Shown piece after piece: positions 1,788 to 54,574 of a stretch of 64,000 nucleotides of DNA. Origin of the DNA: Alphaproteobacteria bacterium. Its GTDB lineage: Bacteria; Pseudomonadota; Alphaproteobacteria; GCA-2731375. The stretch lies in contig JAJFGG010000066.1 in assembly GCA_021776235.1 (NCBI GenBank), positions 26,904-90,903 of the forward strand, read 5' to 3'. Under the pieces are notes generated by a model. That model ran no database searches, was not told the origin of the DNA, and was given only the letters and a program-made list of their open reading frames with translations. The translations under genes and the position numbers were made by a program. Position 1 is the stretch's first letter. Every line of letters starts with the position of its first letter.

Positions 1788-2978
1788 ATGAGTTATGAAA
1801 AACCGTTTGCCGGACTGAATGTCCTGGATTTGAGCCAGGGCTATGCCGGCCCTTATTGTGCCGGGCTATTGGCCCAATATGGTGCCGATGTCATCAAGGT
1901 GGAACCGCCCGAGGGCGACTGGGCCCGGGGCCTCGGCCGGGTCTATGGCGACCAATCCACGATCTCGCTGGCCGCCAACCGGGGCAAGAAGAGCATCGTT
2001 CTGGATTTGAAATCTGCCGGCGGGCTGGCCGTTGCCCATGAACTGGCTGCCCGCTGCGACGTATTCATGGAAGGATTCCGTCCCGGCGTCTGCGCCCGCT
2101 TTGGCTTGGCCTATGACGATTTGCGAAAGGTCAATCCCGGGGTGATCTATCTGGCGGTGAGCGGTTTTGGCCATGACGGTCCCTATGCGCGGGAGGCGAG
2201 TACGGACACGGTGGCACAGGCCTTTTCCGGCCTGATGTCCGTCAATCGCGGCAATGATGACGTTCCCCACCGCGTCGGCCATTACATTGTCGATTGCGTG
2301 ACGGCGCTGTACGCCTATCAGGCCCTTTGCACCGCATTATATGCGCGCCGGGATGAGCCGGAGGGCCGCCTGATAGATTGCAGTTTGATGCAGGCAGCGG
2401 CAGCGGTGCAGACCTCCAAGATCGCGGATTTTCATTTGGAAGATGGCAAGCCGGTCGCCAATAATGCGCCTGCCGGCAGCTACAATACCCAGAATGGCTT
2501 TATCGCCATCACCCTGGTCAAGGAAGAGCAGTTTAGACAAATGTGTCTGGCCCTGGGCCAACCTGCCCTGGCCGACGATCTCCGTTACGTCGATTTTGCC
2601 AACCGGGCCGAGAATATGGATAGTCTGGGCCCGCTGTTGCAGGAGATCCTGTTGCAGCGTCCGGCGGCGGAATGGTCGGCACATTTCCGGGCCGCAGGGG
2701 TTCTGGCCCATCCGGTTGCGGATTATGGCGATTGGATGGCTGATCCACACGTCGTCGCAACCCAGGCTTTCGCGATGATAGGGCAACAGGGCGTCGGGCC
2801 GATGCCCGTGGCCCAAATCCCCGGCGCTGCCGCCATTGATCCGGATGATCCAGGCCAACAGGCGCCATTTCTGGGCCAGCATAGCCGGCTGATACTTGCA
2901 GAACTGGGTTATGACGACGAAAAAATTGCCGCGTTGGCGGCTGACGGCGCAGTGAGATTTTATGAGCATAAGGAGTAG
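1788..2978 (+). CDS. CoA-transferase family III (CaiB/BaiF-like) protein
   Basis: N-terminal GLNVLDLSQGYAGPYCAGLLAQYGADVIKVEPPEGD and overall length of about 396 aa are typical of family III acyl-CoA transferases. Confidence 0.85.
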   Translation: MSYEKPFAGLNVLDLSQGYAGPYCAGLLAQYGADVIKVEPPEGDWARGLGRVYGDQSTISLAANRGKKSIVLDLKSAGGLAVAHELAARCDVFMEGFRPGVCARFGLAYDDLRKVNPGVIYLAVSGFGHDGPYAREASTDTVAQAFSGLMSVNRGNDDVPHRVGHYIVDCVTALYAYQALCTALYARRDEPEGRLIDCSLMQAAAAVQTSKIADFHLEDGKPVANNAPAGSYNTQNGFIAITLVKEEQFRQMCLALGQPALADDLRYVDFANRAENMDSLGPLLQEILLQRPAAEWSAHFRAAGVLAHPVADYGDWMADPHVVATQAFAMIGQQGVGPMPVAQIPGAAAIDPDDPGQQAPFLGQHSRLILAELGYDDEKIAALAADGAVRFYEHKE

Positions 2979-3485: not shown

Positions 3486-4934
3486 ATGGGTGAATATCGG
3501 GCGGTTTTTCTGGTCAACGGCATAATGCTGTTGATCCTGGGCATCGCAATGATGGTGCCGGTACTGCTGGATGCGCGGGTTGATCACCCGGATTGGCAGG
3601 TTTTCCTGGCGGCGGCATTTTTGACGGCCTTCGTCGGTGCCGGTATCAGCATCACCTGTTGGGGTAGCGGCGGGGATTTGCACTTACGGCAGGCCTTTGT
3701 CCTGACCACCACTGTCTGGATCGTGACACCCACCTTCGCGGCCCTTCCCTTTGCCTTTTCCGATCTCAATCTCAGCTACACGGACGCCTTTTTTGAAGCC
3801 ATGTCGGGCATCACGACCACTGGCTCCACAGTGATTTCCGGATTGGAGGATGCGCCGCCGGGTATTCTGATCTGGCGGGCTTTGCTGCAATGGATGGGTG
3901 GCATCGGCATTATTGTGACCGCCATCGCGATCCTGCCCTTATTGCAGGTTGGCGGCATGCAGCTGTTCCAAATGGAAACATCAGATGCGTCAGAAAAGGT
4001 ATTGCCGCGCACGGCGCAGATCGCGGGGACCATCAGCATCATTTATCTATCCCTTTCCGTTCTCTGCGCGCTGGTCTACTGGGCCGCCGGGATGCCGCCG
4101 TTCGACGCCGCCGCCCATGCCATGACCACGATTGCGACCGGCGGTTTTTCCACTTCCGATGGGTCCATTGGGATCTATGACAGCGCCCTGATCGACTATA
4201 CCGCGACCGCCTTCATGATCATCGGCAGCCTGCCTTTCCTGCTGTATTTTCAGGTGGCGCGCGGCCGGCCCCTGGCGCTTTGGCGCGACAGTCAGGTGCG
4301 TTGGTTCTTTGCCATATTGTTCGCCGCGATTGCTGGCATGACCTTGTGGCAGGTGGGTGGCAATGAACTGCCATTCGGCGAAGCCCTGCGCTTTACCACC
4401 TTCAACGTTACTTCAATATTGACCGGCACGGGCTATGCCACCGACGATTATAGCCAGTGGGGCGGTTTCGCGGTTGTGATGTTCTTCTTTGTCATGTTCA
4501 TTGGCGGCTGTGCTGGTTCAACCTCGTGCGGCATCAAGATCTTCCGTTTCCAGGTGCTCTATGCAGCGGCCCGCACCCAGATGGGCGCCCTGTTGCAGCC
4601 CCACGGCGTTTTCGTTGCCAACTTCAACCGCCGGCCCATACCCGAATCGGTGATGGATTCGGTCATGAGCTTCTTTTTCCTGTTTGCCCTAAGCTTTGCC
4701 TTTCTGGCCGTGGCGCTCAGCCTGATGGGACTGGACTTTCTGACCGCCGTATCCGGCGCCGCCACCGCGATTGCCAATGTCGGCCCCGGCCTGGGCAGCG
4801 TCATCGGGCCTTCGGGCACGTTTGCCCCGCTGCCGGACATGGCAAAATGGCTTCTGGCGGCAGGCATGTTGCTGGGCCGTCTGGAGCTGTTAACGGTGAT
4901 GGTCTTGTTTACCCGCACCTTCTGGCGCGGTTAG
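3486..4934 (+). CDS. trkH: Trk-system potassium uptake protein TrkH
   Basis: 482-aa polytopic membrane protein with characteristic TrkH/KtrB repeats (GFSTSDGS, GGCAGSTSCGIK, TIATGGFS). Confidence 0.85.
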   Translation: MGEYRAVFLVNGIMLLILGIAMMVPVLLDARVDHPDWQVFLAAAFLTAFVGAGISITCWGSGGDLHLRQAFVLTTTVWIVTPTFAALPFAFSDLNLSYTDAFFEAMSGITTTGSTVISGLEDAPPGILIWRALLQWMGGIGIIVTAIAILPLLQVGGMQLFQMETSDASEKVLPRTAQIAGTISIIYLSLSVLCALVYWAAGMPPFDAAAHAMTTIATGGFSTSDGSIGIYDSALIDYTATAFMIIGSLPFLLYFQVARGRPLALWRDSQVRWFFAILFAAIAGMTLWQVGGNELPFGEALRFTTFNVTSILTGTGYATDDYSQWGGFAVVMFFFVMFIGGCAGSTSCGIKIFRFQVLYAAARTQMGALLQPHGVFVANFNRRPIPESVMDSVMSFFFLFALSFAFLAVALSLMGLDFLTAVSGAATAIANVGPGLGSVIGPSGTFAPLPDMAKWLLAAGMLLGRLELLTVMVLFTRTFWRG

Positions 4935-5080: not shown

Positions 5081-5140
5081 CGAATTCGGTCTGGTGTCCT
5101 GGGTCAGAAGTATGTCCTGAACATGACGTGCTTCTGACCC
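5081..5140. terminator. Perfect 20-bp inverted repeat (stem 5081-5100 / 5121-5140, 20-nt loop) between convergent trkH and dctM; preceded by a small aattcg-aaat-cgaatt hairpin
   Basis: ctggtgtcctgggtcagaag ... cttctgacccaggacaccag are exact reverse complements. Location suggests a bidirectional terminator or REP-like element. No T-tract follows the hairpin. Confidence 0.55.
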
Positions 5141-5162
5141 AGGACACCAGGATATTTCCGGG

Positions 5163-6542
5163 CTATTCAAAAACCTGCGCCGGCAGCCATTGGGCCAGGC
5201 GCGGAAAGCTCATGACGAGTGCGATGACCGTCAGTTGCGCGCCCACAATGGGAAGGATGCCCCAGTAAATATCGGTGATTTTGACCTGGGGTGGTGCAGC
5301 GCCTTTGAGGAAAAATAACGCGAAGCCGAAAGGCGGCGTCAAGAATGATGTTTGCAGGGTCAGGGCAATCAAGGTCGCCATCCAGAGGGCCGTGCCCATG
5401 TTATCGCCGGCATGGGCGGCGAAATCCAAATCGGACAGCACCGGCAGGAACAGGGGCAATGTAATGATTGTGATCTCGATCCAGTCGATAAAAAACCCCA
5501 AGACAAATATGATGCCGATGATGGTGAGAAGCATGCCCCAATCACCCAGGGCCAGCCCCTGCAGCATGCCGCTGACGACCTCGTCGCCACTGAAAAAGCG
5601 GAACGGATAGGAAAAGACGTTGGCGGCCAGAACAACGAAGAAGACCATGGCTGTCATCAGTGCCGTGCCTTCCACGACCTCGCGGAACAGGGGCCAGGTC
5701 AACCGGCCGTTCAAAAGCATCAGCAGGATGCCGCCCGCCGCACCCACGGCGCCTGACTGGGGCGGTGTGGCCCAGGCGAATATGATTGACCCCAAGACCA
5801 GAAAAATTAGACCGGCCGGCAACACCAGGCCCCGCACGTAGAAACCAAGCCATTGCCAGGACGTCCAGCCATGGCTCCAGTCCGACCCCACGCTTTCGTG
5901 CAGCGCCTTTGGCGGCGACCGCCATGCGGCCAGCATGTAGTAAAACAGGTACAGTGCGACCAGAATGGCTGCCGGCCACATGGTGGCAAGGAACATGTGC
6001 CCGATTGACACGCCCAACTTGCCGGCCAGAAAAAACAGCATGATCGCAGGCGGCAAAATAAGGCCCAGGGTTCCCGCCGCAGCTACGACACCACTGGCCA
6101 GGGCCGGGCGATAGCCCTGTTCCAGCATGGTCGGCAAGGCGATCAGGGCCAGGGTCGCGACCGAGGCGCCGACGACCCCTGCCGTGGGTGCGAGCAGGAT
6201 GCCCAAAAAGGTCACGGCGATGGCCATGCCCGCCGGCACCCGTCCAAGCAAATGCTGCAGACACAATAACAGATCGCGGGCAATGCCGCTTTTCTCCAAC
6301 GCCATGCCCATGAACAACAGCATGGGCACCGTGGGATAGATCAGGCTGCCATTGATGCTGCCGTATATGCGCAACGGCACGTTCAACAGGGCGATCCACG
6401 GCATCTCTCCCAGGGCGATGCCGATCAGGCAAAACCCGACGCCCAGGCCGGCCAGCAGCACCGCCACCGGCAGACCGGAAAAGATCAAAATCGCCAACGA
6501 GGCCAGCATGAGATAGGGCAGGATATCGACGAATTCCGGCAT
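5163..6542 (-). CDS. dctM: TRAP transporter large permease DctM
   Basis: About 459-aa polytopic protein with DctM-family signatures. ATG at 6542 (MPEFVDILPYL...) lies 5 nt downstream of the upstream ORF's stop. The track's 497-aa version carries an unlikely N-terminal extension. Confidence 0.85.
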   Translation of the reverse strand: MPEFVDILPYLMLASLAILIFSGLPVAVLLAGLGVGFCLIGIALGEMPWIALLNVPLRIYGSINGSLIYPTVPMLLFMGMALEKSGIARDLLLCLQHLLGRVPAGMAIAVTFLGILLAPTAGVVGASVATLALIALPTMLEQGYRPALASGVVAAAGTLGLILPPAIMLFFLAGKLGVSIGHMFLATMWPAAILVALYLFYYMLAAWRSPPKALHESVGSDWSHGWTSWQWLGFYVRGLVLPAGLIFLVLGSIIFAWATPPQSGAVGAAGGILLMLLNGRLTWPLFREVVEGTALMTAMVFFVVLAANVFSYPFRFFSGDEVVSGMLQGLALGDWGMLLTIIGIIFVLGFFIDWIEITIITLPLFLPVLSDLDFAAHAGDNMGTALWMATLIALTLQTSFLTPPFGFALFFLKGAAPPQVKITDIYWGILPIVGAQLTVIALVMSFPRLAQWLPAQVFE

Positions 6543-6547
6543 GGCTT

Positions 6548-7129
6548 TCAGTCTTTGGCGCGGCGTTGCGCCAAATTGCGCACGGCTGCGACGATTGCCG
6601 CCAGCAGAAACAGGCCCAGGCCAAAGGGCATGGCGCCTTTCAATAGCCATCGCCACGGCCCGCCAAGGGTCAGCGCCAGTCTCTCGCCGTCATCGAAGCT
6701 GTTAATCGCATAGTCGATGCCAAAATAGAGAACCACCATTACAAACGGCAGCATGAGCAAGAGCAGACCCAGCAGTTCTATGCGGCCCTGCATTGCCGGC
6801 GACAGGCGTTCCCTGATGACATCGACCCGGACATGGGCGCCGCGAATGTAGGCATAGCCCAGGGTCAGCAGGACCAGGAACACGAACAGTTCCCATTCCA
6901 GGTATTGCGGCAGGGACAAAGCGGCGTTGAATACCTTACGGGCGACAATCTCGTAGACACGCACACCGATCATCGCCGGCAGAATGATCAGGGCGCTCCA
7001 GAATCCGATGCCGCAGATGGCGCGGTCAATGGCGCTCAGGATAAGCAAAAGGCGTTCCCGGCTGGAAGCCGCACGAAAGGCGGCCCAGCGCCGCCGCCGG
7101 GGGCCCTGCACGCGCCGGTGCCGGAGCAT
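6548..7129 (-). other. DctQ-like TRAP small-permease module encoded in-frame at the 3' end of the RND ORF
   Basis: 4 predicted TM helices (AICGIGFWSALIILPAMIGV, LEWELFVFLVLLTLGYAYI, IELLGLLLLMLPFVMVVLYFGIDYA, AMPFGLGLFLLAAIVAAV) and the conserved HVRVD motif. Starts at an internal Met and is immediately followed by dctM, as in canonical dctQM pairs. Confidence 0.7.
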
Positions 7130-10100
7130 TTTCTGAATATCCAGTTGTATGGCAAGCAAGGACGGGACCACCAGCAGAACCAAGAGCGTGGCAACGGCAA
7201 GGCCGAAAATCAGGGTTATGGCCATGGGTATAAGAAACTGCGCCTGCAGGCTGGTTTCAAACAACAACGGTGTCAGGCCGCCGATTGTGGTCAACGAGGT
7301 CAGCAGAACGGCGCGCAGCCGGTCCTGGCTGCCGGCTATGATGGCCTGAAAGCTGTCTTCGCCGGCGGCAATACTTTCATCGATGGTGGAAACCAGAATG
7401 ATGGAATCGTTAACCAGTATGCCGGACAGACCCAACAGGCCGACCAGGGTCAGCAAGCTCAAATCAAATCCCAGCAGCAGATGCCCCATGACCGCCCCGA
7501 CGATGCCAAACGGGATAACGGCCATCACCACGACGGGCCGGACATAGCTGGAGAAAACCCAGGCCAGGATGACATAGATCGCAGCCAGGCCGATCAGGGC
7601 GCCCAGCCGCATATCGGCCATGGTGCGGGCCTGTTCTTCAGCCCGTCCAGCGAAGCTGTACTGCAGACCGTATTGCCGGGCAATGCTGGGCAATTCGCTG
7701 TCTTCAAGTGCTTCCAGCAACTTGCCCATGCTAATTTCGCTTACGTCCAACTCGCCTGTGATGGCGGCCTCGCGCAGGCCGTCCTGGCGCCGGATGCGTG
7801 CGAATCCGGCGTCTTCCCGCATGGATACCACTTCGCTCAGGGGAACATCGACGCCGCTGGGGCCGCGAAGATACAGGTTCAACAGGTCTTCGGTCGTGAT
7901 CGCACCGCGCTCATATTGCACCTTTACCGTGACTTCCTCGTCGCCCCGGGGAAAACGCTTGGCGATGGCACCTTGAAACGCCGCCCGCACCTGTCGGCCC
8001 ACGCTGTCCGTCGAAAAACCAAGAGCCCGCCCACGCGGCGTCAATTCCAGGATCACTTCCTGCTTGCCGTATGGCAGATCATCCTCAACGTCACTGACGC
8101 CGGGGAAACGTTGCAGCAGGGTCTTCACCTCGTGTGTGGCGGCCTTCAGATCGCGGGTGGTGCCGCCCTGTAAACGAATATCGATCTCCTTCCCAGGCGG
8201 CCCGCCTCTGCGTGCATTCAAGTTGATGCGATCCACACCTGGCTGCCGTTGGATGCGCTGGCGCCAGGTCTCGATAAAATCCGGCATGCGGATCTGGCGA
8301 TGATCGGACGGTATCAATTCCACATAAAGGCCACCGTATTTGTCTCCTCGCACGCTGTAAAACTCGGCGGCTTGAGATTTGCCGAGACTGCCGAAGGTGG
8401 AATGGATCAGCGGCTCGCTGGCCACGGACGTGCCTGGGGACTGCGTCGCCGCCTCGCGCGCGGCCCGCTCCAACTCGTGCACCATGGCCTCTGTCCGGGC
8501 GCGCGGCGTTCCGGGCATCATCACTACGTTGCCATAGACAATGTTGCCTTCGGGTGTGGGAAAAAATTGAAAGCCAATCCGCCCGCCGCCAATTATACCC
8601 AGGGCAATGATCAGAGCGGCGACGGCGCAGGCCACGGTCAAGTACCGCCATTGTATGCAGGCAACTAGAAAAGGTCGGTATCCACGGCTGCGAAACTGAT
8701 CAAACTGACGGTTGAACCAGGCACGTGCCCGAGACTCCTGCTGGTTCGCCTGACCCAACGCGCCACGCAAATGACCCGGCAAAATCAGAAAACATTCAAG
8801 CAGACTGGCGACCAGAACAGAAACCGTGACCAGGGGAATGGCGCTCAAGATAGTGCCGATGATACCACCGATGATGATCAGCGGCAAAAAGGCGGCAATA
8901 GTGGTCAGGGAAGACGCCACCACCGGCGCCAACATGCGCAAGGCGCCCTCTTCGGCCGCTTGCCGGGCACTCAGTCCAGTGGCGCGGCGCGTGGCGGCAT
9001 GCTCGCCAACCACAATAGCGTCGTCAACGATAATGCCGAGCGTCATTATCAGTGCGAACAGACTGACCATGTTGATGGATTGCCCGGTCAGCAGCATCAC
9101 GCCCGTTGTCGCCAGCAGCGCGACCGGAATTCCGGCTGCGACCCAAATGGCCACACGCAAATTCAAAAAGATGAACAAGATGATCACGACCAGCGCCAGG
9201 CCGCCAACGCCATTTTTCAATAGTATAGCGATACGCTCGCTGATCAGGCCAGCTTGTACATCGTAATGTTCCAACTTCAGGGTCGGCGGCAGAGTCTGGC
9301 GCAGTTCCGCCAAATAACGCTCAACCGCGGCGGCAGCCTCCAGCGCATCTGCGCCAACAGCGCGTTTGACATGCAACTCGATCGCCCGGTCCTTGGCCAG
9401 GCGGCCTTCCACGGCATCTGCGTCGAAGGCTTCGTGTACACCCGCAATATCGCGTAGGCGTATCTTTTCACCGTTTGGCAGGGAGCGGATTTCTATATCG
9501 CCGAGGCCGGTGGCGGAGGTTTCAAGGCCCAGGCTGCGAATTTGCTTTTCAACCTGGCCTTCTATATTGCCCGACGGCAGATCCTGGCTGCGGTCACGAA
9601 TGCGATCTGCCACGTCACTCAGGCTCAAGCCCAGACGGCGCAAGGTTTGCGGCGTCATATCGACCCATATTTCCTCGTCCCTGGCGCCATACAACAGGAC
9701 CTGATCGATGCCGCGGGCCAGCAGTCCCTCGCGAATTCGCTTGGCGATGGCCTTTAGGGCGCTTTCACTAAACGGGCCGGAAACGGCAATGCGCGATATG
9801 GTGTCGTAGCGGGTGACCCGGCGAATAATTGGGGTTTCGCTGCCGGCGGGCAAGGTCGTGACCTGGGCGACGGCCGAAACCACATCCGCGCGTCCGGCCT
9901 GCATATCGCTGCCCGCGTTGAATTGCACCAAGACCGTTCCCGATCCCTCGACCGCGAATGAAATGATGTGATCCACGTTATTGAGATAACGGACTTCAGG
10001 CTCGATGGCGGTGACGATGTTGCCTTCAATGTCGCTCGCACTGGCGCCCGGCCAGGCGACAGTGACCGACACCATATCGATACCGAAATCCGGGAAGAAC

Positions 10101-10213
10101 TGTGTATTCAAGCGGGATAAAGACACTGCGCCAAGAACCAGCATGACCACCATCAACAGGTTGGCGGCATTGCGGTGACGGACAAACAATTTGACCAGAT
10201 CGGCGGGGTTCAT
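6548..10213 (-). CDS. RND efflux permease (AcrB/HAE1-like, ~1028 aa) continuing in-frame, with no stop codon, into a DctQ-type TRAP small-permease module (~193 aa)
   Basis: Single 1221-aa ORF. The N-terminal ~1028 aa show RND hallmarks, and TM12 ends ...VVPSLLAIQLD. Five codons later an internal Met (codon 7129-7127) opens MLRHRRVQGPRRRRW... followed by 4 TM helices and the DctQ signature GAHVRVDVIRERL. The ATG overlaps the MFP stop (ATGA at 10210-10213). Confidence 0.7.
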   Translation of the reverse strand: MNPADLVKLFVRHRNAANLLMVVMLVLGAVSLSRLNTQFFPDFGIDMVSVTVAWPGASASDIEGNIVTAIEPEVRYLNNVDHIISFAVEGSGTVLVQFNAGSDMQAGRADVVSAVAQVTTLPAGSETPIIRRVTRYDTISRIAVSGPFSESALKAIAKRIREGLLARGIDQVLLYGARDEEIWVDMTPQTLRRLGLSLSDVADRIRDRSQDLPSGNIEGQVEKQIRSLGLETSATGLGDIEIRSLPNGEKIRLRDIAGVHEAFDADAVEGRLAKDRAIELHVKRAVGADALEAAAAVERYLAELRQTLPPTLKLEHYDVQAGLISERIAILLKNGVGGLALVVIILFIFLNLRVAIWVAAGIPVALLATTGVMLLTGQSINMVSLFALIMTLGIIVDDAIVVGEHAATRRATGLSARQAAEEGALRMLAPVVASSLTTIAAFLPLIIIGGIIGTILSAIPLVTVSVLVASLLECFLILPGHLRGALGQANQQESRARAWFNRQFDQFRSRGYRPFLVACIQWRYLTVACAVAALIIALGIIGGGRIGFQFFPTPEGNIVYGNVVMMPGTPRARTEAMVHELERAAREAATQSPGTSVASEPLIHSTFGSLGKSQAAEFYSVRGDKYGGLYVELIPSDHRQIRMPDFIETWRQRIQRQPGVDRINLNARRGGPPGKEIDIRLQGGTTRDLKAATHEVKTLLQRFPGVSDVEDDLPYGKQEVILELTPRGRALGFSTDSVGRQVRAAFQGAIAKRFPRGDEEVTVKVQYERGAITTEDLLNLYLRGPSGVDVPLSEVVSMREDAGFARIRRQDGLREAAITGELDVSEISMGKLLEALEDSELPSIARQYGLQYSFAGRAEEQARTMADMRLGALIGLAAIYVILAWVFSSYVRPVVVMAVIPFGIVGAVMGHLLLGFDLSLLTLVGLLGLSGILVNDSIILVSTIDESIAAGEDSFQAIIAGSQDRLRAVLLTSLTTIGGLTPLLFETSLQAQFLIPMAITLIFGLAVATLLVLLVVPSLLAIQLDIQKMLRHRRVQGPRRRRWAAFRAASSRERLLLILSAIDRAICGIGFWSALIILPAMIGVRVYEIVARKVFNAALSLPQYLEWELFVFLVLLTLGYAYIRGAHVRVDVIRERLSPAMQGRIELLGLLLLMLPFVMVVLYFGIDYAINSFDDGERLALTLGGPWRWLLKGAMPFGLGLFLLAAIVAAVRNLAQRRAKD

Positions 10214-11454
10214 TGACGGACTTCGACCTTTTGTCCTGGTCCTATTTCGGCAAACCTGGTCAGCACCACCTGCTCGCCATCGCGGATATCACCCTGCAGA
10301 AGGACATCATTGCCGACCCGCGCCGTCAGTTCGACCGCCCGCCGTTCCAGACGGTCGCCTTGGATGACATAAATGGTATCACCGTTGTACAAGGCGCTTT
10401 CAGGTATTCGCGCCACGCCGCGATATTTTTGATCGGGCATGGCGATGGCTACGAAGGCACCAGGGCGAAGAGGATTTGTCAAATCTGCGCCAGCTAGCCG
10501 GATGAATACCGGTACACCGCCGCTGGCGCTGTCTATGCGGGCGTCAACGCGGTCCAATCGCCCGTCGTAACGGAAACTTCGCCCACCCACCTGCCAGGTA
10601 ATCTCCGCCGACCGGCCGGTCAGGGGGCCGTCCGAGACCAGGCGGCCGTATTGTCCGTTGGACAGAATGACCCTTGCTTCTAAACGGCCAGCGTCAATTA
10701 GCCGCGCGACGCGATCATTGGCGTTCAGGCGCTTGCCTACCTGGGCCTGCACATCGGCCAGGAAACCATTGAAGGGTGCGGTCAATCGCGCCCGTTGCAG
10801 ATCCCGTTTCGCCCGCCGCAGATTCACGCCGAGGCGATTGATGACCGCTTCCTGTTGTTTGATACGCGCGGTTTCGCCCGCCAATTCGCTTTTCCGCATT
10901 TCGGTCATCTTCTGCTGCCGGGTCAGGTCAATGCGCGCGGTATCCAGCCGCTTTTCGGAAACCGTGCCCCGGGTAGACAGCGAGCGCACGCGTTTCACTT
11001 CGCGCTGAAGCAAGCTGACCAATTCCAGATCGCGGCCCAGCGCCAACCCGTATGACTCCTTGCGGGCGCTGATTTCCTCCAAACGCGCCATTGCTTCCCG
11101 CGTCTGCGCCGACAGTTCATCTATCTTGGCCTGATAGTCGAATTCATCGATTGCGATTATCAAGTCGCCCTGATGCAAACTGCCGCCGTCGACGAAATTG
11201 TCGGCGACCGCGACCACCTCGCCGGCTACCAGGGCCCGTAGCTCGACCTCCCGCCCCGCGACAATTTCCCCGTACAGGCGCAGCTTCGGCTGAATATCAC
11301 CAAAGGCCACCGGGTGCGCGGTCACCAACCAGGCCTGTTCGGGTTGGTCCAGGGGCTCGACAATGGGTTTTGTGCGTACCAGATAGGCAGCGCCCATCAC
11401 GGCAGCCAGAACCACCATGGCCGGCACCACCGCTTTTCGAACTTGCCAAGACAT
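10210..11454 (-). CDS. Efflux RND periplasmic adaptor (membrane-fusion protein, HlyD/AcrA family)
   Basis: 414 aa with an N-terminal TM anchor, coiled-coil segment (QAKIDELSAQTREAMARLEEISARKES...) and C-terminal beta-barrel/MP domain pattern. Translationally coupled to the RND ORF. Confidence 0.85.
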   Translation of the reverse strand: MSWQVRKAVVPAMVVLAAVMGAAYLVRTKPIVEPLDQPEQAWLVTAHPVAFGDIQPKLRLYGEIVAGREVELRALVAGEVVAVADNFVDGGSLHQGDLIIAIDEFDYQAKIDELSAQTREAMARLEEISARKESYGLALGRDLELVSLLQREVKRVRSLSTRGTVSEKRLDTARIDLTRQQKMTEMRKSELAGETARIKQQEAVINRLGVNLRRAKRDLQRARLTAPFNGFLADVQAQVGKRLNANDRVARLIDAGRLEARVILSNGQYGRLVSDGPLTGRSAEITWQVGGRSFRYDGRLDRVDARIDSASGGVPVFIRLAGADLTNPLRPGAFVAIAMPDQKYRGVARIPESALYNGDTIYVIQGDRLERRAVELTARVGNDVLLQGDIRDGEQVVLTRFAEIGPGQKVEVRQ

Positions 11455-11574
11455 GGCGGAAACCTACGCAGCCTCGCCGGAACGATCAAGCATTCCGATC
11501 CAGGAACACCCTTTGGTGGACCGCTGCCTGGTCGACCGCTATCCTGGCCGGATTGTTGCAATGGGGAAATCTGC
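11455..11574. promoter_or_regulatory. Divergent intergenic region between the MFP-RND operon and argE (probable promoters)
   Basis: 120-bp gap between divergently oriented start codons. No adjacent regulator gene (no TetR/LysR), and no specific operator recognised. Confidence 0.3.
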
Positions 11575-12732
11575 ATGACTGCTCAACTTTTTACGCCACG
11601 CGAAATGATCGAACGATTGGTGGCATTCGATACAACAAGCCGAGAGTCCAATCTGGAGTTGATCCATTTCGTGCGTGACTATTTGGCCGGTCATGGCGTG
11701 GCCTCGACGTTGATCCACAACGAAAGTGGCGCCAAGGCCAATCTTTTTGCCACGGTTGGCCCCGTCGTCGATGGCGGCGTCGTGCTGTCGGGCCATACCG
11801 ATGTGGTTCCGGTTGATGGCCAGGATTGGTCCAGTGATCCTTTTCAGGTGGACGAGCGCGAGGGCCGGCTGTATGGCCGCGGCACGGCGGACATGAAAAG
11901 CTTCTCCGCCATCGCCCTTGCCTTGGTGCCGGCCATGGTGGAACGTGGCCTGTCACTGCCCATTCATTTTGCCCTTTCCTATGACGAGGAGGTCGGCTGT
12001 CTGGGCGCCCCGGACCTTTCCCGCCATATTCAGGGTCTGCCGTGCCGGCCGCAGGCGTTGATCGTTGGCGAGCCGACGGAGATGAAGGTGGTCAACGCCC
12101 ACAAAGGCTGCTGTGCCATCAGGACCGTCGTAACCGGTTTGGAGGGGCATTCCTCAGAGACGCACAAGGGCGTCAATTCCATTTTTGCCGCCATGGAGTT
12201 GATCCGGTACTTGGCCGATCTGGCGGAAGAATTTAAGACATCCAATGTCGATCCACGCTTTGACCCGCCCTACACCACCATTCAGGTAGGAACCATCACC
12301 GGCGGCACCGCCGGAAATATCATTCCCAAGGAAACCACGTTCTGGTGGGAATATAGGGCCCTGCCAAACATCGATGGTTCAAAAATAGTGGCCGATTTCC
12401 AGGCCTTTGCAGCCAACGAGGTGCTGCCGAAAATGCGCGCGGTTCATCCCCTTGCCGATATTCGTATCGATGTGCGGGGCGAGGTCATTCCGCTGTTGCC
12501 GGAAGATGGTTCGCCCGCGGAAACCCTGGTTCTGGCACTAACCGGCAGTAATCAAACCTATGCTGTTTCCTATGGCACCGAAGCCGGAATTTTCCAGAAG
12601 GGCGGCGTTGCATCAGTAATTTGCGGACCAGGCAGTATTTCTGTTGCGCATCGCCCGGACGAGTATGTGGAGATCTCACAGATCGAAGCCTGTACCGCGT
12701 TCATGCATCGGCTGATTGACCGGTTGGCCTGA
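11575..12732 (+). CDS. argE: Acetylornithine deacetylase (M20 peptidase family)
   Basis: MTAQLFTPREMIERLVAFDTTSRESNLELIHFVRDYL..., HTDVVP, DMKS metal-binding motifs; 385 aa. Start moved to the internal ATG at 11575; the track's upstream extension is antisense to the MFP gene. Confidence 0.8.
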   Translation: MTAQLFTPREMIERLVAFDTTSRESNLELIHFVRDYLAGHGVASTLIHNESGAKANLFATVGPVVDGGVVLSGHTDVVPVDGQDWSSDPFQVDEREGRLYGRGTADMKSFSAIALALVPAMVERGLSLPIHFALSYDEEVGCLGAPDLSRHIQGLPCRPQALIVGEPTEMKVVNAHKGCCAIRTVVTGLEGHSSETHKGVNSIFAAMELIRYLADLAEEFKTSNVDPRFDPPYTTIQVGTITGGTAGNIIPKETTFWWEYRALPNIDGSKIVADFQAFAANEVLPKMRAVHPLADIRIDVRGEVIPLLPEDGSPAETLVLALTGSNQTYAVSYGTEAGIFQKGGVASVICGPGSISVAHRPDEYVEISQIEACTAFMHRLIDRLA

Positions 12733-12790: not shown

Positions 12791-13390
12791 CTATGGCGCG
12801 CGTTTGAACGGGGCCAGGTGACGATTAATATTGGCCGTCATCCCGCGGTCGAAATCCTTGGCGGCGGCCTCGATAAAGCGATACAGGGCATCGTCACGTT
12901 CGTTGATGCTGACCTCTTCCGGCATGGTGCGTTGCCGGGTCGCGGTGGCTGATGCGAACCCGCGACCCAAGCCGCCGGCGGTCACAATTTCCAACTTCGC
13001 TTCCAGCCGGGCGCCATAGCGGGCCGCCTGATCGAGGGTAAACATGGCTTCAAAGCCCTCTTTCTTGTGCAACTTCTCGATCCTGACGGATGCGTCAATG
13101 ATGATGAATTTCGCCTGGCCGCTTGTTCCCATGGCGCGCAGACGATCCTTCGCCCAATTCCGCATTGCCTGGGCTGGCGCCAATGGCAGCGCATGTTCCA
13201 CATTCGGGGCGCGCAGCGGCGAACGATATTGTTCGACGATCTCTATGCGGGCGACATTCAAATGTATCTCCGGCAGGTGACTAAACCGCAGGTCGGGATA
13301 GGTGACCTTCTTCAAGGGGCTTTCGCAGGCTGCCAAAAGAAAGCCGAAACAAAGGACGGGCAGGAGTGGCAGAAGGCGGTATAGCGTCAT
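12791..13390 (-). CDS. Hypothetical lipoprotein
   Basis: Signal peptide with lipobox LLAAC; no recognisable catalytic motifs. Confidence 0.6.
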   Translation of the reverse strand: MTLYRLLPLLPVLCFGFLLAACESPLKKVTYPDLRFSHLPEIHLNVARIEIVEQYRSPLRAPNVEHALPLAPAQAMRNWAKDRLRAMGTSGQAKFIIIDASVRIEKLHKKEGFEAMFTLDQAARYGARLEAKLEIVTAGGLGRGFASATATRQRTMPEEVSINERDDALYRFIEAAAKDFDRGMTANINRHLAPFKRAP

Positions 13391-48431: not shown

Positions 48432-48589
48432 TGACGCGGTTTTTTTCCACCATGCCTACGCCTCATTGACTCCCGGGCACTTAGGATTTTATCCTTTTTT
48501 GCTGATGTTCTTATATCGAACAGCGTATGCGATAATAGACGGGCTGGTTGTCAATCCCGGAAATATTGATCCAATTAAGGAGGGGTGCA

Positions 48590-49837
48590 ATGTTTAGAAA
48601 ATTCTTTCTGCGTCTAATCGAAATTGTAACGGCGATATTTATTGCCGCTTACATTGCCTTTGTGCCCACAGTCGTGATGAGTCAAGGTCTTCCGGAAGGG
48701 ATGATTTACTTCTATGCCTATGGCAACGCTTCTGGCGAGGACGCCTGCCCGAAAGGCGGCGAGGCATTGCCCGGCGGAAACTTGATCAAGGTTGGTAAGG
48801 AATCAGCAGATCCGGTCGGGACGCCGCTGGAAGACAAAACCGACCCGATGCACACACACGGAAAGCGGGTCCTCGTTTATCCCAATTTGGAACCCATGTC
48901 GATTTATTCGAGCACCTGTGACAAGGGCGGCTCGGAGGATAAATCGGGAAACTGCAATTTTTCGGGGGCCGCGCCCGGACCATTTACGGGGATAGGCTTT
49001 GTCGAATCCGCATCTTCGGGGCTTTCTTTTTTTCAAATCACGGCCTGTAAACAAACCGAAAAGCCAGCTTCTAAGTCCGGGCTAGATGTATTTCCAGTGG
49101 GTGCAGTCGTGTTCACCACTGGCGTTTCATTATGTAGTCAAATTGACCATTCCTGGAAATCTTTTAACAACGCCGGCAACGGTCTCTTCATAGTCACCCC
49201 AATGTCAGGGCAAAGCGTCGGTTTTTCAGCGGTAGTGGGGGAAAAGGGTGATACGAACCACGTCCATGTGCTCAAGGGAGAATTCGCGACCCCAACGGTT
49301 TATTTCGCCGCGGTCGCGGGGAAAGAGGGTGAAAAAGGTGGGCGATTGGCCGTGTCGAAAACCGACTACAAATATTACAATGATACCGACGCAGGGCCAG
49401 GCCTCCCATACTTGCAATATCCCTTATGCGAAAAACAGGAGAGCGAAAGACGCTATAGGTACAACATTCCGTCTGGGGTGGTCGTCTTCTCCAATACAGC
49501 CTGCACCGATGGCTGGTCCGAGGTGCGGGACAAGAATGGGGATCGACCGGATGGCCGCTTTATCGTCACTTTGCTTGGTGGCGGCGCAAACTTAACCGCG
49601 TTTGGAGCGCAACCTGGTATCGATAATACAACGATGGTGAGCCACAGACACGAAGGTACAGCACTTATCTCCCCACCTGCAGCGGGAGTGACCGTGAGAT
49701 CGACCGTGGCACCGGTAGATCCCAAAAACCCCGGAAACTATGCCGGGATTTTTTTGCATGCGCCGAAAGATATCGAGACAAATGAGTCAAAGGTAAACGC
49801 CCCGTACGTCCGGCTCCGGCTATGTCAAAAGAACTGA
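48590..49837 (+). CDS. Hypothetical membrane-anchored/secreted Gly- and Cys-containing protein (415 aa), lower-GC DNA
   Basis: ATG at 48590 with AAGGAGG RBS; N-terminal TM (LIEIVTAIFIAAYIAFVPTVV). No recognised domain. Codon usage visibly AT-richer than the backbone. Confidence 0.55.
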   Translation: MFRKFFLRLIEIVTAIFIAAYIAFVPTVVMSQGLPEGMIYFYAYGNASGEDACPKGGEALPGGNLIKVGKESADPVGTPLEDKTDPMHTHGKRVLVYPNLEPMSIYSSTCDKGGSEDKSGNCNFSGAAPGPFTGIGFVESASSGLSFFQITACKQTEKPASKSGLDVFPVGAVVFTTGVSLCSQIDHSWKSFNNAGNGLFIVTPMSGQSVGFSAVVGEKGDTNHVHVLKGEFATPTVYFAAVAGKEGEKGGRLAVSKTDYKYYNDTDAGPGLPYLQYPLCEKQESERRYRYNIPSGVVVFSNTACTDGWSEVRDKNGDRPDGRFIVTLLGGGANLTAFGAQPGIDNTTMVSHRHEGTALISPPAAGVTVRSTVAPVDPKNPGNYAGIFLHAPKDIETNESKVNAPYVRLRLCQKN

Positions 49838-49937
49838 CGCCCGTCGAGTATCCGTGGACAGCGTAAGATAAGGGGTTCCCGCCGCCGAATCCGCCAGGAA
49901 GTCGGGTTCGCGATCACCAGTTGATGGCCGGCCGGCT

Positions 49938-50174
49938 TTGAGGATCATCGCGCCGAAGGCAATTGTAGCAAACCCACCGACGGCTGACCTCGACATCTAC
50001 CGCACCGCCAAGCTGTTGATAGACCAATACGGCGAAGATGCAGCCTTTCACGCCGGCATGCGGGTGGATGAGATGTTGGACAGGGGCGACTTGGACGGCA
50101 GGGCGGTTTGGCGGCGGGTTCTTGCGGCTGTGGAGGAATTGCAGAGTGTGGGGGTTGAGGGGCCGGTGCATTAG
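49938..50174 (+). CDS. Small hypothetical protein (78 aa) of uncertain reality (non-ATG start)
   Basis: ...DIYRTAKLLIDQYGEDAAFHAGMRVDEMLDRGDLDGRAVWRRVLAAVEELQ reads like a coding sequence. The only upstream in-frame start is TTG. Confidence 0.35.
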   Translation: MRIIAPKAIVANPPTADLDIYRTAKLLIDQYGEDAAFHAGMRVDEMLDRGDLDGRAVWRRVLAAVEELQSVGVEGPVH

Positions 50175-50237
50175 TGAATCATGGTTTGAAATTCAACATT
50201 CAAGGCGCGGTTCCCGCGCGTTGCATACAATTCAAGC

Positions 50238-51047
50238 TCAAAAAAAGCCCCTGAAATGATCCACTACAAGAGCAGTATAGTCACATAAATGTTGGGATAT
50301 TTTGAGAACAGGTAGGGGCTCCTGATTTGATTCAACCGCTGCTACAGCTGCACCAGTCCAGTCACCTGAAGCTGCTTCAATGGCACAATTAGTCCGATAC
50401 TCTAGAAGAACGGCCTCTGGTTCTAGAGGCCCAGCCCATACAGTAACATCTGGCGGAACATTCGCTGATGCGTCCTCATCAGAGTAAAATTTTACTGATG
50501 TAGATAATGAAATTCTCTCAGGTGCGACGAGCACAACAGGTGGAATCTGATGTTTATCTGTATTGCTAAATTTCTGAAGTAAAACTAGCGGATCCTGTTC
50601 AGGACAACCCAACACATCAACCTTATTTCGATGATATGGCTGAATCCTCTCGATCATTTCAACCGCTTTCTCAGGAAGCTGATTTAGCCTTGTCCTATCA
50701 AGTTGAGTTTCTTTCTCACATATTGGAAAATGTATTGCCCGTGGGTTCGTCGGAGGGTCAAGCTGAGTTCGCGCCAAGGCAAAGGCCAAGTTATCTAGAC
50801 CACTACGTAAATTATGAACGATTTCTCCAAAACAAAGAGACCAGTCTTGGGGTGTTTCTGGCGAATCGTATCTGTCTAATATTAATTTATAACCCATTCG
50901 CTCATCACGCAATTCGCAACGAGCTTTGATTGGATGTAGTTCATTCCAATTAGAGACCGAGACAGTAAGTTCGGATAACAATTTTGCTGCCCGCTGGAGC
51001 TTAAGCTCTGCAGGTTCAAGAAATTTAAGATGATCACCCTCGTTCAT
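50238..51047 (-). CDS. Hypothetical protein (269 aa) encoded on low-GC DNA
   Basis: Clean ATG at 51047; no recognisable motif. DNA markedly AT-richer than the surroundings; sits between the island genes and the prophage lysis cassette. Confidence 0.5.
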   Translation of the reverse strand: MNEGDHLKFLEPAELKLQRAAKLLSELTVSVSNWNELHPIKARCELRDERMGYKLILDRYDSPETPQDWSLCFGEIVHNLRSGLDNLAFALARTQLDPPTNPRAIHFPICEKETQLDRTRLNQLPEKAVEMIERIQPYHRNKVDVLGCPEQDPLVLLQKFSNTDKHQIPPVVLVAPERISLSTSVKFYSDEDASANVPPDVTVWAGPLEPEAVLLEYRTNCAIEAASGDWTGAAVAAVESNQEPLPVLKISQHLCDYTALVVDHFRGFF

Positions 51048-51840
51048 TGCAACAGCACCATAAATTTTTTACGAGTATTAGTAACAATATTTTTCATAGA
51101 AATTCGCAGAACTAGGGTCAAGATGCGCCCAGAACAAACTGCGAATCCTACAAGAAATTGCACCCGTACGGAGCTGGAAAACCTGACCCACTCAGACGGA
51201 ATAAAAGCGAACAAAAAGAGGGGCCAGGCAAACCCTGACCCCCCGATCCGTTTTTGCTCTTCAGGCTAACAATTGAACGACCACATAGGCTATTGCCCAA
51301 GCGATCGCGGCCATGTTGACCCGAACAACGATCTGAACAGTCATGATATTTCACGACCCTTCTGATCCACGGCGCCGCGAACCATAAGGTTGCGGGAAAC
51401 GCGCCCTGATCAACGGATAAGCCGCCGTTACAGGGATGATCGGCCCGCCATCCATTTTGGCCAAACAAGATGACGATCCCCGCTAGTTCAGCGGCAGTGC
51501 GGACCCATAAAGGGCTGCCCGTATACTGCGGCAACGGGGCTGCGGTTATCCGGTTAGGGAACGATCCACGGAACTAACGTGGGAACCCGCCGGGCCGCGC
51601 ATTCTCTCATGATCCGCTGGTTAACGAATCACGGGGAAGGCAGAGTAACATAAAATCGATATTCGAACGAATCGATCGGCGCCCACCAAACTACACGTGC
51701 TAAAGGCGGAGCCCCCTGCCATCCTATTTTCCCGCCAGACGCCCAACCAGGCCGTCCAGGCCCTCGACAAGCGCAAGCCGCCCAGGGCAATGATCACTTT
51801 CGCCGCATCGGGCCCCCGCACTCTGCCGCCAAAGGGGAAA

Positions 51841-52284
51841 TCAACCCAGCCACAACGCCCGCTCCTCCGCCCGCCGCCGTACCAAGCCACGCAGGATACG
51901 CCCACCCGCCCGGCGCCACCTGAGGAACTCGTCCGCCGCACCGGCCATATCGCCGCGGTTGGCCTTCATGCGCAGGGTTGAAGACTGCAGGTTGCCGCTG
52001 CCCAAGTTGTAGGTAAACGACACCAGGGCGGAGAACTGGCCCCCTGACAACGGCACACGGATCAGCCGCCGCACGGCCCGTTCGGTATGTTGCAGCATCC
52101 GCGCCAGCAGGATCTCACCATCGCCTTCGCTGATATCCGGATGCGCCATGGTCAGCCGGGCCCGATCCAGGCCCCAGATCGAGCCATAGCCGATAGTGGG
52201 GATACCTATGGGGTCCAGGTACGGCACAGGCGAGAAGCCTTCGAAATGCTTGATGATCTCCAGGCCGGCGGCGTTGGTCTTCAT
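51841..52284 (-). CDS. Phage lysozyme (GH24 endolysin)
   Basis: EGFSPVPYLDPIGIPTIGYG motif (catalytic Glu and conserved fold of T4-type lysozymes); 4-bp overlap with the upstream holin-like gene. Confidence 0.8.
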   Translation of the reverse strand: MKTNAAGLEIIKHFEGFSPVPYLDPIGIPTIGYGSIWGLDRARLTMAHPDISEGDGEILLARMLQHTERAVRRLIRVPLSGGQFSALVSFTYNLGSGNLQSSTLRMKANRGDMAGAADEFLRWRRAGGRILRGLVRRRAEERALWLG

Positions 52285-53372: not shown

Positions 53373-53473
53373 TCGTTAGAAATTCTCTGTCGCTCTGATC
53401 CCAATTGCCGCCGGAAGGATTGTCGCAAAATATCACCAAATTCGGGAACCGCGGCTACGCGGACGACCTACCT

Positions 53474-53989: not shown

Positions 53990-53999
53990 TACGGCTCCC

Positions 54000-54568: not shown

Positions 54569-54574
54569 TTCGTC

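Follow-up and report, generated by a model that had tools for sequence, protein, structure and literature searches.

We analysed a stretch of 64 kb (64,000 nucleotides; hereafter the window) from a marine alphaproteobacterium, in which an efflux-pump protein is joined to a small TRAP membrane subunit. The genes concerned lie on the minus strand. The MFP gene (10210-11454) encodes a membrane-fusion (periplasmic adaptor) protein of 414 aa with an N-terminal membrane anchor, the RND::DctQ fusion gene (6548-10213) is a single ORF of 1221 aa, and dctM (5163-6542; ATG at 6542, stop at 5163-5165) encodes the large TRAP permease subunit of 459 aa. The MFP stop overlaps the RND start in an ATGA at 10213-10210, and a 5-nt gap separates the TGA of the fusion from the dctM ATG, confirming the tightly packed, one-strand set described in the earlier note on this DNA. 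Its neighbours were also as given there, namely trkH (3486-4934, plus strand), which is convergent with dctM, and a gene for an ArgE-like M20 peptidase (11575-12732, plus strand), which lies divergently on the MFP side; the claim that no regulator gene is nearby was likewise borne out. The argE and trkH neighbours are a matter of mere synteny, with no functional link to the transporter genes indicated.

The MFP start and the divergent argE-like gene are separated by an intergenic region (11455-11574), the sole non-coding stretch upstream of the four units and the presumed site of the operon promoter. A scan of this upstream region for the sigma-70 consensus gave no match above shuffle expectation. 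In two relatives, L007 and L008, nucleotide homology to window positions 11699-11517 is kept and now lies directly upstream of dctQ, because MFP and RND have been deleted. Between dctM and trkH there is an inverted repeat (5091-5150) with a 20-nt loop and perfect 20-bp arms, which read CTGGTGTCCTGGGTCAGAAG ... CTTCTGACCCAGGACACCAG. It is without a T-run and the terminator scan gave no call; possibly it is a bidirectional terminator or a REP-like element.

The RND part of the fusion (aa 1-1020; 7154-10213) has 12 TM helices and two large periplasmic loops, and matches PF00873 (ACR_tran) over residues 7-1020 with 541 bits. Its closest solved relatives are AdeB, MexB and AcrB (about 245 bits, full length), and it scores far under the NCBIfam permease cut-offs (449 against 1250). 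The MFP is recognised by HlyD_3 (2e-11) and by TIGR01730 RND_mfp, with 147 bits against a cut-off of 94.9 bits. In common with HAE-1 type pumps such as AdeABC, MexAB-OprM and AcrAB-TolC, the MFP is translationally coupled to a full-length RND protein, and the Asp-Asp motif of TM4 is kept (GIIVDDAIVV). The window system differs from these pumps in its C-terminal DctQ domain, in the absence of an OMF gene from the locus, and in an Asn at the position of AcrB K940 and AdeB K931. This Asn is found in all 119 readable TM10 motifs among the 120 closest relatives, fused and unfused alike.

An Arg-rich linker of about 60 aa (aa 1021-1080; 6974-7153), beginning QKMLRHRRVQGPRRRRWAAFRAASSRER and probably cytoplasmic, attaches DctQ TM1 to RND TM12, since dctQ has joined the RND reading frame. 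The DctQ domain (aa 1081-1221 and the stop codon; 6548-6973) is a small TRAP subunit with four TM helices that matches PF04290 over residues 1081-1214 (65 bits; cut-off 28.3). Its subfamily profile matches the solved SiaQ subunits 7QHA_A (7e-8) and 7QE5 (4e-6). DctM matches PF06808 at 1.5e-56, and among solved structures it is related to 9PYM (76 bits) and HiSiaQM (50 bits). With canonical DctP-type TRAP transporters (TC 2.A.56; SiaPQM, DctPQM and the COG4663-4665 'mannitol/chloroaromatic' systems) the pair shares a 4-TM DctQ with the Arg equivalent to HiSiaQ R30, and a DctM with elevator-type hairpin motifs that keeps the equivalents of G337, P342, G517, D521 and T561. However, no dctP or TAXI gene accompanies it in the 64 kb, DctQ is part of an RND fusion, DctM has Gln at the E429 position, and the TIGR00786 score (206.9 bits) is under the cut-off of 268.45. 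As in the fused DctQM permeases (HiSiaQM, TAXI-TRAP), the small subunit is covalently attached to another membrane protein. In those permeases an extra TM helix connects the C-terminus of Q with M (PMC5812351), whereas here Q is attached by its N-terminus, without such a helix, to the C-terminus of the RND protein, and M is a separate gene.

RND::DctQ is a genuine gene fusion that has been kept by selection. A survey of related genomes, as proposed in the earlier note, showed that the arrangement is conserved: nine clusters at 90% identity, drawn from NCBI, ENA and JGI data, contain intact fused ORFs (1202-1226 aa), as do 11 further genomes of a species-representative collection besides that of the window. 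The fused ORF (1214-1226 aa) is intact in all 12 genomes compared, and the frame has stayed open across a dS of about 0.9-1.4. Across these genomes dN/dS is lowest for RND (0.11) and DctM (0.12), followed by MFP (0.14) and DctQ (0.21), and highest in the linker (0.30). The linker is the least conserved of all segments (median identity 47%, against 85% for DctM), with its dN/dS still below 1. That the fusion is an artefact of sequencing or assembly, or a decaying pseudogene remnant, would fit the frameshifted, truncated or deleted versions seen in some close relatives. Nevertheless, the intact frame recurs in genomes and protein clusters from independent projects, purifying selection is strong on all parts, and the constraint on DctM equals that on RND, which makes this reading extremely improbable. 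For the window copy, we rejected it on the protein clusters and the 12-genome dN/dS comparison. We found no published description of the RND::DctQ architecture.

The DctQM pair of the window falls within a large clade that comprises about 80 loci (DctM 45-91% identical) and spans Alpha-, Beta- and Gammaproteobacteria; most of these loci are without an RND gene. As the earlier note had claimed, neither a binding-protein gene of the DctP (PF03480) or TAXI type nor an outer-membrane factor (TolC/OEP) lies nearby; none was found in the 64 kb by Pfam scans of 31 ORFs or by synteny with annotated relatives. A DctP HMM probe gave zero matches in the window and did recover true DctP genes at two other loci. 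Across the clade loci, it matched only in the outgroup L082 and in an unrelated canonical system in L068. No SBP appeared in five clade contexts with precomputed Pfam annotation, and no recurrent SBP family was found among 137 ORFs neighbouring DctQM. The missing SBP, which had been regarded as a peculiarity of the hybrid operon, is thus a trait of the whole clade. L082, the most divergent member (DctM 44% identical), has a normal dctP-dctQ-dctM operon with dctP directly upstream. The clade derives from this canonical family, and the SBP gene no longer adjoins DctQM.

The E429 residue of HiSiaM is reported to be strictly conserved and required for SiaP binding (PMC10942642). At the equivalent position, 64 of 82 clade members have Gln, among them both fused families described here, and the SBP-linked L082 has Glu. 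Since Glu is also present in 17 members without a linked SBP, this sequence signature is merely partial. The S356 position is variable in the clade. These observations bear on whether the window encodes an ordinary SBP-dependent importer of an organic acid, whose dctP or TAXI gene is unlinked and for whose transport mechanism the RND protein is irrelevant. All characterised TRAP systems are strictly SBP-dependent importers (PMC9971032, PMC10942642), and the descent from a P-Q-M family, the retained Arg of DctQ, the 17 members that keep Glu, and the catabolic-type genes (CoA-transferase III, ACAD, AMP-ligase, SDR) at 16 of 66 loci would all agree with such an importer. However, dctP adjoins DctQM only in L082, and such systematic loss of linkage is uncommon among TRAP operons. 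The replacement of E429 by Gln and the variable S356 position also speak against it. In addition, metal-efflux islands, in some cases close to MerR-type regulators, harbour about one third of the clade loci, a setting in which an importer is hard to account for. On balance, we consider it unlikely. Genes for CDF, P-type ATPase, MerR, LspA, multicopper oxidase, SCO1 or PCuAC lie within 2.5 kb in 20 of 66 other loci. Two unfused relatives have co-directional sets, which in L035 comprise a CzcB-like MFP, a CusA/CzcA RND protein (1194 bits), an HMA-CDF, DctQ and DctM, and in L085 an MFP, an RND protein, a CDF, DctQ and DctM.

An outgroup with an RND protein 64% identical to that of the window has the order argE, MFP, RND, trkH without DctQM. 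The lack of an outer-membrane factor, which the earlier note had found remarkable, is therefore ordinary in this slot, for which an MFP-RND pair without OMF is the ancestral state. In the ancestor of the window's clade, DctQM was placed directly downstream of the resident MFP-RND operon and then came to share one frame with RND. Since the outgroup has no DctQM, the fusion is young in this clade; it is also separable, having been reversed at least four times. L007 and L008 retain DctQM after deletion of MFP and RND, and in L014 and L090 a 1-nt frameshift in the linker splits RND from DctQ, both of which are retained. L001 carries a nonsense codon in the linker together with a DctQM deletion, and L003 has lost DctQM. 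The tether, and even the partnership, is therefore dispensable.

We also identified a second RND::DctQ family (L040/P0264, P0391-3, P0368 and P0367), in which a gene with ACR_tran and DctQ overlaps the dctM that comes after it. Pairwise identity within this family is only 29-43%, and all members are still fused. The RND part is about 24% identical to the window protein, its closest unfused relatives are 30-32% identical, and there is no MFP. In the DctM tree, the two fused groups form separate monophyletic clades with many unfused lineages in between. The fusion arose twice, and the second family is the older one. Its neighbours include P450, ferredoxin, thiolase/ChsH2-like and CoA-transferase genes. 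Such a family, which without an MFP cannot be a tripartite exporter and whose neighbours are typical of catabolic clusters, would be expected if the RND porter domain replaced the SBP, in line with the idea in the earlier note that DctQM acts with RND periplasmic domains, capturing an amphiphilic carboxylate from the periplasm or outer leaflet and passing it to the tethered DctQM for import. RND holds the position directly upstream of dctQ that dctP has in the canonical outgroup, and a linked SBP gene is absent. Nevertheless, in the window's family the translationally coupled MFP, under constraint at a dN/dS of 0.14, indicates an outward conduit. L007 and L008 retain DctQM without RND, most clade members never had RND, and we know of no RND protein that passes its substrate to a secondary carrier. 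We therefore regard this reading as a long shot.

A serious rival to the explanation that we favour is a neutral or near-neutral fusion of independent modules, in which dctQM landed behind MFP-RND and the RND frame ran into dctQ. The pump would export its own substrates and DctQM would carry something else, the tether being merely tolerated because the termini are cytoplasmic and DctQ is static. The recent origin in the window's clade fits this view, as do the four independent reversals or losses in which each module proved viable alone, the weakly conserved linker and the syntenic neighbours, which give no functional hint. It is harder to reconcile with an independent and much older second family in which every member is fused, with unfused clade members within MFP-RND-CDF clusters, and with a frame kept open in 12 genomes and a linker whose dN/dS is below 1. 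We rate it as doubtful, albeit well ahead of the importer readings.

Two-step efflux is known from CzcD, ZntA or CadA with CzcCBA, CopA with CusCBA, and EmrE or MdfA with AcrAB-TolC, where an inner-membrane carrier brings the substrate into the periplasm, from which an RND pump then clears it. To our knowledge, these partners are separate proteins without a physical link, and the carriers have never been TRAP-type DctQM; the unfused relatives of the window DctQM do occur in such sets (MFP-CzcA-CDF-DctQ-DctM). Our best explanation, held tentatively, is that an SBP-independent TRAP-type carrier, tethered through a static scaffold subunit to an RND pump, acts in a two-step efflux relay. Without an SBP, DctQM would carry a substrate out of the cytoplasm towards the periplasmic side, where the RND/MFP pump would collect and expel it, a hard-wired form of the known cooperation. 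The operon product would be an inner-membrane supercomplex, (RND::DctQ)3-(DctM)3, joined by MFP and by an OMF whose gene would lie elsewhere. Because the DctQ N-terminus and both termini of RND are probably in the cytoplasm, an extra helix is unnecessary. In solved TRAP structures the Q subunit solely extends the static scaffold (PMC9971032); because DctQ touches only this immobile part of DctM, the elevator motion of DctM should stay free when DctQ is anchored to a large RND trimer. The tether would promote co-assembly, yet be inessential, because either module can persist alone.

In favour of the relay we count that the fusion is real and constrained in 12 genomes, that the same architecture recurs in a second family, that L035 and L085 lie within RND/CDF efflux clusters, that the SBP is unlinked across the clade with the E429 equivalent mostly Gln, and that the tether is compatible with TRAP topology (PMC5812351) and a static Q scaffold (PMC9971032). 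Against it we count the youth of the fusion with its four or more reversals, the second family, which has no MFP and whose catabolic neighbours fit uptake better than tripartite efflux, the fact that every characterised TRAP system imports with the help of an SBP, the Glu kept at the E429 position by 17 members with no linked SBP, and the possibility of an unlinked SBP gene at another place in the genome. The non-canonical assembly proposed in the earlier note thus gains from the two origins and the unfused relatives in RND/CDF clusters, but the splits and losses show that the partnership is not obligate. We know of no demonstration of export by a DctQM. Judging from the sequences, the twofold origin suggests that RND and TRAP types may be able to cooperate. 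ArsB, AbgT, CitMHS and DASS belong to the ion-transporter superfamily and are related to DctM distantly, at that level only. They act as exporters or plain secondary carriers, need no SBP, have no Q subunit, and provide a precedent for how a DctQM without an SBP could function.

The locus comprises three genes on the minus strand of the window: an MFP gene (10210-11454; 414 aa; Pfam HlyD_3), an RND::DctQ fusion gene forming a single uninterrupted ORF of 1221 aa (6548-10213), and dctM (ATG at 6542, stop at 5163-5165; 459 aa). It is flanked by trkH and a gene for an argE-like M20 peptidase, both recognised by Pfam. The earlier note had described four units on one strand with overlapping or near-abutting junctions and with trkH and argE as neighbours, and each of these points was confirmed: the MFP stop and RND start overlap in an ATGA, and the dctM ATG follows the TGA of the fusion after 5 nt. 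When the operon was scanned for promoter and terminator consensus sequences, the counts matched the shuffle expectation, so the case for a single operon is the gene packing itself.

The MFP matches TIGR01730 RND_mfp (NCBIfam) at 147 bits, above the cut-off of 94.9. The RND part covers PF00873 (ACR_tran) at residues 7-1020 with 541 bits (the model has 1021 positions), and is a full-length permease with 12 TM helices and two periplasmic loops, alignable end to end with AdeB, MexB and AcrB. Compared with HAE-1 pumps, it is an ordinary HAE-1-like permease whose best solved relatives are these same three proteins. DctQ, the small 4-TM subunit of TRAP transporters, is here a domain of the RND protein (PF04290, aa 1081-1214, 65 bits against a 28.3-bit cut-off), and its subfamily profile matches the solved Q subunits 7QHA_A and 7QE5. 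DctM, the large 12-TM permease subunit, matches PF06808 at residues 13-448 (1.5e-56) and aligns with the M parts of 9PYM, 8THI/7QE5 and 7QHA_B. Set against the TRAP family, the DctQ and DctM of the window are true TRAP membrane subunits. The RND part scores under the NCBIfam subfamily cut-offs (449 vs 1250), and DctM scores under the TIGR00786 cut-off (206.9 vs 268.45, NCBIfam); both are divergent members of their families.

Within the proton relay of the RND part, the TM4 Asp-Asp motif (AcrB D407, D408) is present as GIIVDDAIVV; an Asp-Asp motif in TM4 was found in 96 of the 120 closest relatives (P0001-P0120). The TM10 position of AcrB K940/AdeB K931 is Asn (N935, window 7409-7411), followed by Asp. 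Since ND or NN occupies this position in 119 of the same 120 homologues, fused or not, the Asn is a trait of the whole RND subfamily.

Several other features of the window were recorded. Between the convergent dctM and trkH lies a perfect inverted repeat of 20 bp (CTGGTGTCCTGGGTCAGAAG / CTTCTGACCCAGGACACCAG; 5091-5150), with a loop of 20 nt and without a T-run, which could be a terminator acting in both directions or an element of the REP/MITE type. A 199-aa ORF on the minus strand (12791-13390) adjoins the argE-like gene and has no Pfam or NCBIfam match; nine related loci and the outgroup share it at the same position. Towards its right end (~48500-64000) the window has a phage- or mobile-element-like appearance, and includes a 951-aa protein (57847-60702) whose C-terminal part is a PBECR3 nuclease domain, a 661-aa protein whose sole match is E1_FCCH (61289-63274), and ORFs without a Pfam match at 48548-49837, 50238-51047, 55022-56101 and 56186-57541.

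A search of 5.8 billion proteins recovered nine 90%-identity clusters of 1202-1226 aa, drawn from NCBI, ENA and JGI, all of which carry PF00873 and PF04290 and are 74-100% identical to the protein of the window. Among species-representative genomes we found 14 loci of the window's clade, all in MAGs of uncultured marine Alphaproteobacteria or Rhodospirillaceae, and 11 of these have an intact fused ORF (1214-1226 aa) and, after it, a DctM of 455-460 aa, giving 12 genomes with that of the window. The MFP-RND-dctQM arrangement is thus intact in 11 other genomes and is no isolated artefact, a possibility that the earlier note had raised. Pairwise dN/dS (Nei-Gojobori; 66 pairs among the 12 genomes, dS ~0.9-1.4) was 0.14 for the MFP, 0.11 for the RND part, 0.30 for the linker (~60 aa), 0.21 for DctQ and 0.12 for DctM. 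Neither half is decaying in these 12 genomes, because DctM is as constrained as the pump. An artefact or pseudogene was rejected on the intact fused clusters from three sources and the low dN/dS, and by the same sequence comparisons the fusion is real and under selection.

In the outgroup, whose RND protein is 64% identical, the slot reads argE / MFP / RND / trkH without dctQM; the MFP-RND pair is therefore the resident and dctQM the later arrival, merged into the RND reading frame. Some close homologues look unfused, but these were rejected as proof of an unfused ancestor, and all of them derive from the fused form. The proteins P0010 and P0013 stop within the linker, apparently cut off by contig ends, and P0013 and P0015 are labelled partial by NCBI. 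In the loci L014 and L090 (P0011), a 1-nt indel at the end of TM12 leaves the linker and DctQ continuing in another frame, with both genes otherwise intact. L001 (P0012) has a nonsense codon in the linker and a deletion by which DctQ runs into the final 30 residues of DctM, and L003 has lost DctQM and kept a linker-like tail. The closest relatives of the window (L007 and L008; DctM 91% and ArgE 93-94% identical) have the order argE / dctQ / dctM / trkH with a relic of RND TM12 before dctQ, and their nucleotide homology to the window leaps from 11517 to 7087, which indicates that a deletion of ~4.4 kb removed the MFP and RND genes. The fusion has thus been undone at least four times in the window's clade, and either module can persist alone, which is clear evidence that the tether is dispensable there. 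The main rival to the efflux relay proposed below, a tolerated fusion of unrelated modules, draws on this history, as the fusion is young in the window's clade and has been repeatedly reversed; we regard that explanation as a serious alternative, somewhat less probable than the relay.

We also identified a second fusion family. The related locus L040 encodes a 1237-aa ORF with ACR_tran at residues 15-1028 and DctQ at residues 1078-1209, followed by a 455-aa DctM, and L042 and L050 hold partial copies of the same type. An exhaustive HMMER search with the DctQ region, together with a search with the L040 protein, extended this family to P0264 (identical to L040), P0391-P0393, P0368 and P0367. 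Its members are 29-43% identical to one another and ~24% identical to the protein of the window, and their nearest unfused RND relatives are 30-32% identical; given the low mutual identity and the distance of the unfused RND proteins, this second fusion is old and stable. In the DctM tree each of the two fused groups is monophyletic, and many unfused lineages separate them; the parsimonious reading is that the RND-DctQ fusion arose twice independently.

The second family has no MFP gene. In two of its loci (L087 and L088), the fusion directly follows ferredoxin and cytochrome P450 genes and is surrounded by thiolase/ChsH2-like, CMD, CoA-transferase III and HpcH genes. The earlier note had suggested that DctQM might act with RND periplasmic domains. 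We retain the idea, with the RND domain standing in for the SBP, as one of the smaller rivals, and it fits the MFP-less second family with its catabolic context better than it fits the window. Within the same DctQ subfamily, eight other proteins (P0255, P0302, P0320, P0327, P0330, P0334, P0359 and P0381) carry an N-terminal hydrophobic multi-TM extension of 100-250 aa that is not RND, a further uncommon addition at this end of DctQ.

The absence of partner genes noted earlier was upheld: across the 64-kb window, 31 ORFs scanned against Pfam and the remaining ORFs compared by synteny with annotated relatives include no DctP, TAXI or TolC-type protein. OMF genes are commonly unlinked from pump genes. 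The syntenic outgroup operon likewise has no OMF gene, and an MFP-RND pair without one is a resident, ordinary feature of this slot. Outside the window's clade, the nearest DctM relatives (70% and 57% identical) are encoded in dctQ-dctM pairs, and neither has a DctP or TAXI gene within 8 kb. We recovered 80 loci with DctM proteins 44-91% identical, mainly from Alpha-, Beta- and Gammaproteobacteria, and clustering of their neighbour genes gave no recurrent SBP-sized family. Pfam analysis of 137 ORFs of 285-445 aa lying up to 7 kb from the pairs, in which each recurrent ORF cluster counted once, assigned no family to more than three of them, and the families listed include no SBP family; the larger clusters, identified by Pfam or synteny, included none that was SBP-like. 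A conserved alternative binding protein adjoining DctQM was rejected on this low recurrence among the 137 neighbour ORFs.

A DctP probe, in which a SiaP query was run with phmmer and one HMM iteration over 3188 ORFs, found two true DctP proteins and no others; Pfam confirmed both. In L068 the DctP gene is 8.7 kb away and accompanies another DctM, of canonical type. In L082, which is the most divergent member (44%) and roots the DctM tree, it immediately precedes dctQ-dctM. Because dctP adjoins DctQM only in this root locus, the clade descends from an ordinary dctP-dctQ-dctM family and its linked SBP gene was lost; the absence of a linked SBP is a clade-wide trait. The system lacks the defining TRAP feature, a cognate, co-encoded SBP. 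That it is nonetheless a canonical importer served by an unlinked SBP is another of the smaller rivals.

Residues were compared with HiSiaQM, in which R30, S356 and E429 are reported to be strictly conserved and required for SBP docking, E429(M) being needed for SiaP binding (PMC10942642). The R30(Q) equivalent is conserved in the clade. The S356 equivalent is Ser in the window, P/T/S across the clade and Pro in the SBP-linked outgroup L082. At the E429 equivalent the window has Gln, as do 64/82 clade members, including both fused families, while L082 and 17 SBP-less members have Glu. At the Na sites, which are built from backbone carbonyls (PMC10942642), G337, P342, G517 and T561 are kept and S295A, S298A, G558S and M564F are altered. 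The DctM changes S295A/S298A/D304S/G558S/M564F were rejected as a marker of SBP loss; they are uninformative because they are common to the SBP-linked L082, which has Thr at S298.

MFP-CzcA-CDF sets are textbook two-step efflux partners, and such sets accompany unfused members of the clade. In L035, one strand carries a CzcB-like MFP, a CusA/CzcA-family RND (1194 bits), an HMA-CDF, DctQ and DctM, and L085 has MFP / RND / CDF / DctQ / DctM. Metal-homeostasis genes, among them HMA-domain CDF, P-type ATPase, MerR, LspA, multicopper oxidase, SCO1, PCuAC, cupredoxin and FTR1-cytochrome c, occur at 23/66 non-redundant loci outside the window's clade, and within 2.5 kb at 20. Loci with such neighbours a few kb from DctQ-DctM include L025, L027, L032, L035, L037, L043, L062, L067, L068, L071, L075, L076, L078, L079, L083 and L085; DsbA-like proteins are also found beside SBP-less pairs in metal-type loci. 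Another 16 loci have catabolic-type genes. CoA-transferase family III genes lie near DctQ-DctM in the window (1788-2978) and in 12 related loci; they occur in both fused families (L040 has one immediately upstream of its fusion, L087/L088 on the downstream side) and also in L004/L021. Their recurrence may hint at an organic-acid substrate.

Five loci carry a second DctM paralogue, 35-39% identical to the DctM of the window and ~5 kb or less from the first (L023:6885-8646, L025:3170-4910, L037:12889-14196, L038:12042-13815, L043:5263-6585). It has its own DctQ in L023, L025 and L038, FTR1-cytochrome c fusion genes occur in four of the five loci, and the DctP probe with the SiaP query detected no DctP gene in any of them.

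Both termini of RND permeases are cytoplasmic. DctQ has four TM helices and a cytoplasmic C-terminus (PMC5812351), so its N-terminus is cytoplasmic as well, and the Arg-rich linker would join it to the RND C-terminus without an extra helix. In known Q fusions, the C-terminus of Q is joined to M through an extra helix, whereas here the N-terminus of Q is joined to RND. In solved TRAP structures, Q touches only the static scaffold of M and enlarges it (PMC9971032), so a tie to a large RND trimer should leave the elevator movement of DctM free. The expected product would be an inner-membrane (RND::DctQ)3-(DctM)3 assembly with the MFP, plus an OMF from elsewhere.

We tentatively favour a two-step efflux relay, at somewhat less than an even chance, in which SBP-independent DctQM would deliver the substrate on the periplasmic side, from where the RND/MFP pump would remove it. 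The relay is preferred because a coupled MFP is kept in the window's family, because unfused relatives are embedded in MFP-CzcA-CDF sets, and because many unfused relatives lie near MerR-type regulators. A broader proposal, which we consider doubtful, is that RND::DctQ and DctM form a previously unrecognised composite envelope transporter, a TRAP elevator without an SBP that would dock through its scaffold subunit onto an RND machine and pass substrate directly. Where an MFP is present, such a transporter would act as an efflux relay hard-wired from the cytoplasm to the outside; the MFP-less family would instead carry out RND-assisted uptake, its RND periplasmic domain taking the place of the SBP.

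Strict dependence on a periplasmic binding protein defines TRAP transporters, and RND pumps are thought to take substrates from the periplasm or outer leaflet, inner-membrane feeder carriers being separate proteins. The full-text literature searched contained no description of an RND-DctQ fusion, of SBP-less or orphan DctQM, or of an SBP-independent TRAP system, which does not in itself prove novelty; nor did the literature searched describe DctQM in metal-resistance clusters or a role of TRAP-type permeases in metal homeostasis. Specialists on TRAP and RND systems would find the architecture and the SBP-less clade surprising, tempered by the dispensable tether in the window's clade. If the fusion is neutral, the locus still offers a well-resolved view of how a membrane-protein fusion arises and then decays repeatedly. 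The clade also provides a natural test, tractable by genetics, of the two-step efflux model, since the fusion specifies which carrier feeds which pump, and unfused versions in cultured relatives (Nisaea denitrificans, Pelagibius marinus and Reyranella) make the question directly testable. A DctQM clade without a linked SBP gene, recurrent in metal-efflux islands and twice fused to RND, challenges the definition of the TRAP family, and if the SBP-independent reading is true, these ~80 loci would encode the first TRAP-derived permeases to dispense with an SBP, and many of these would act in metal homeostasis.
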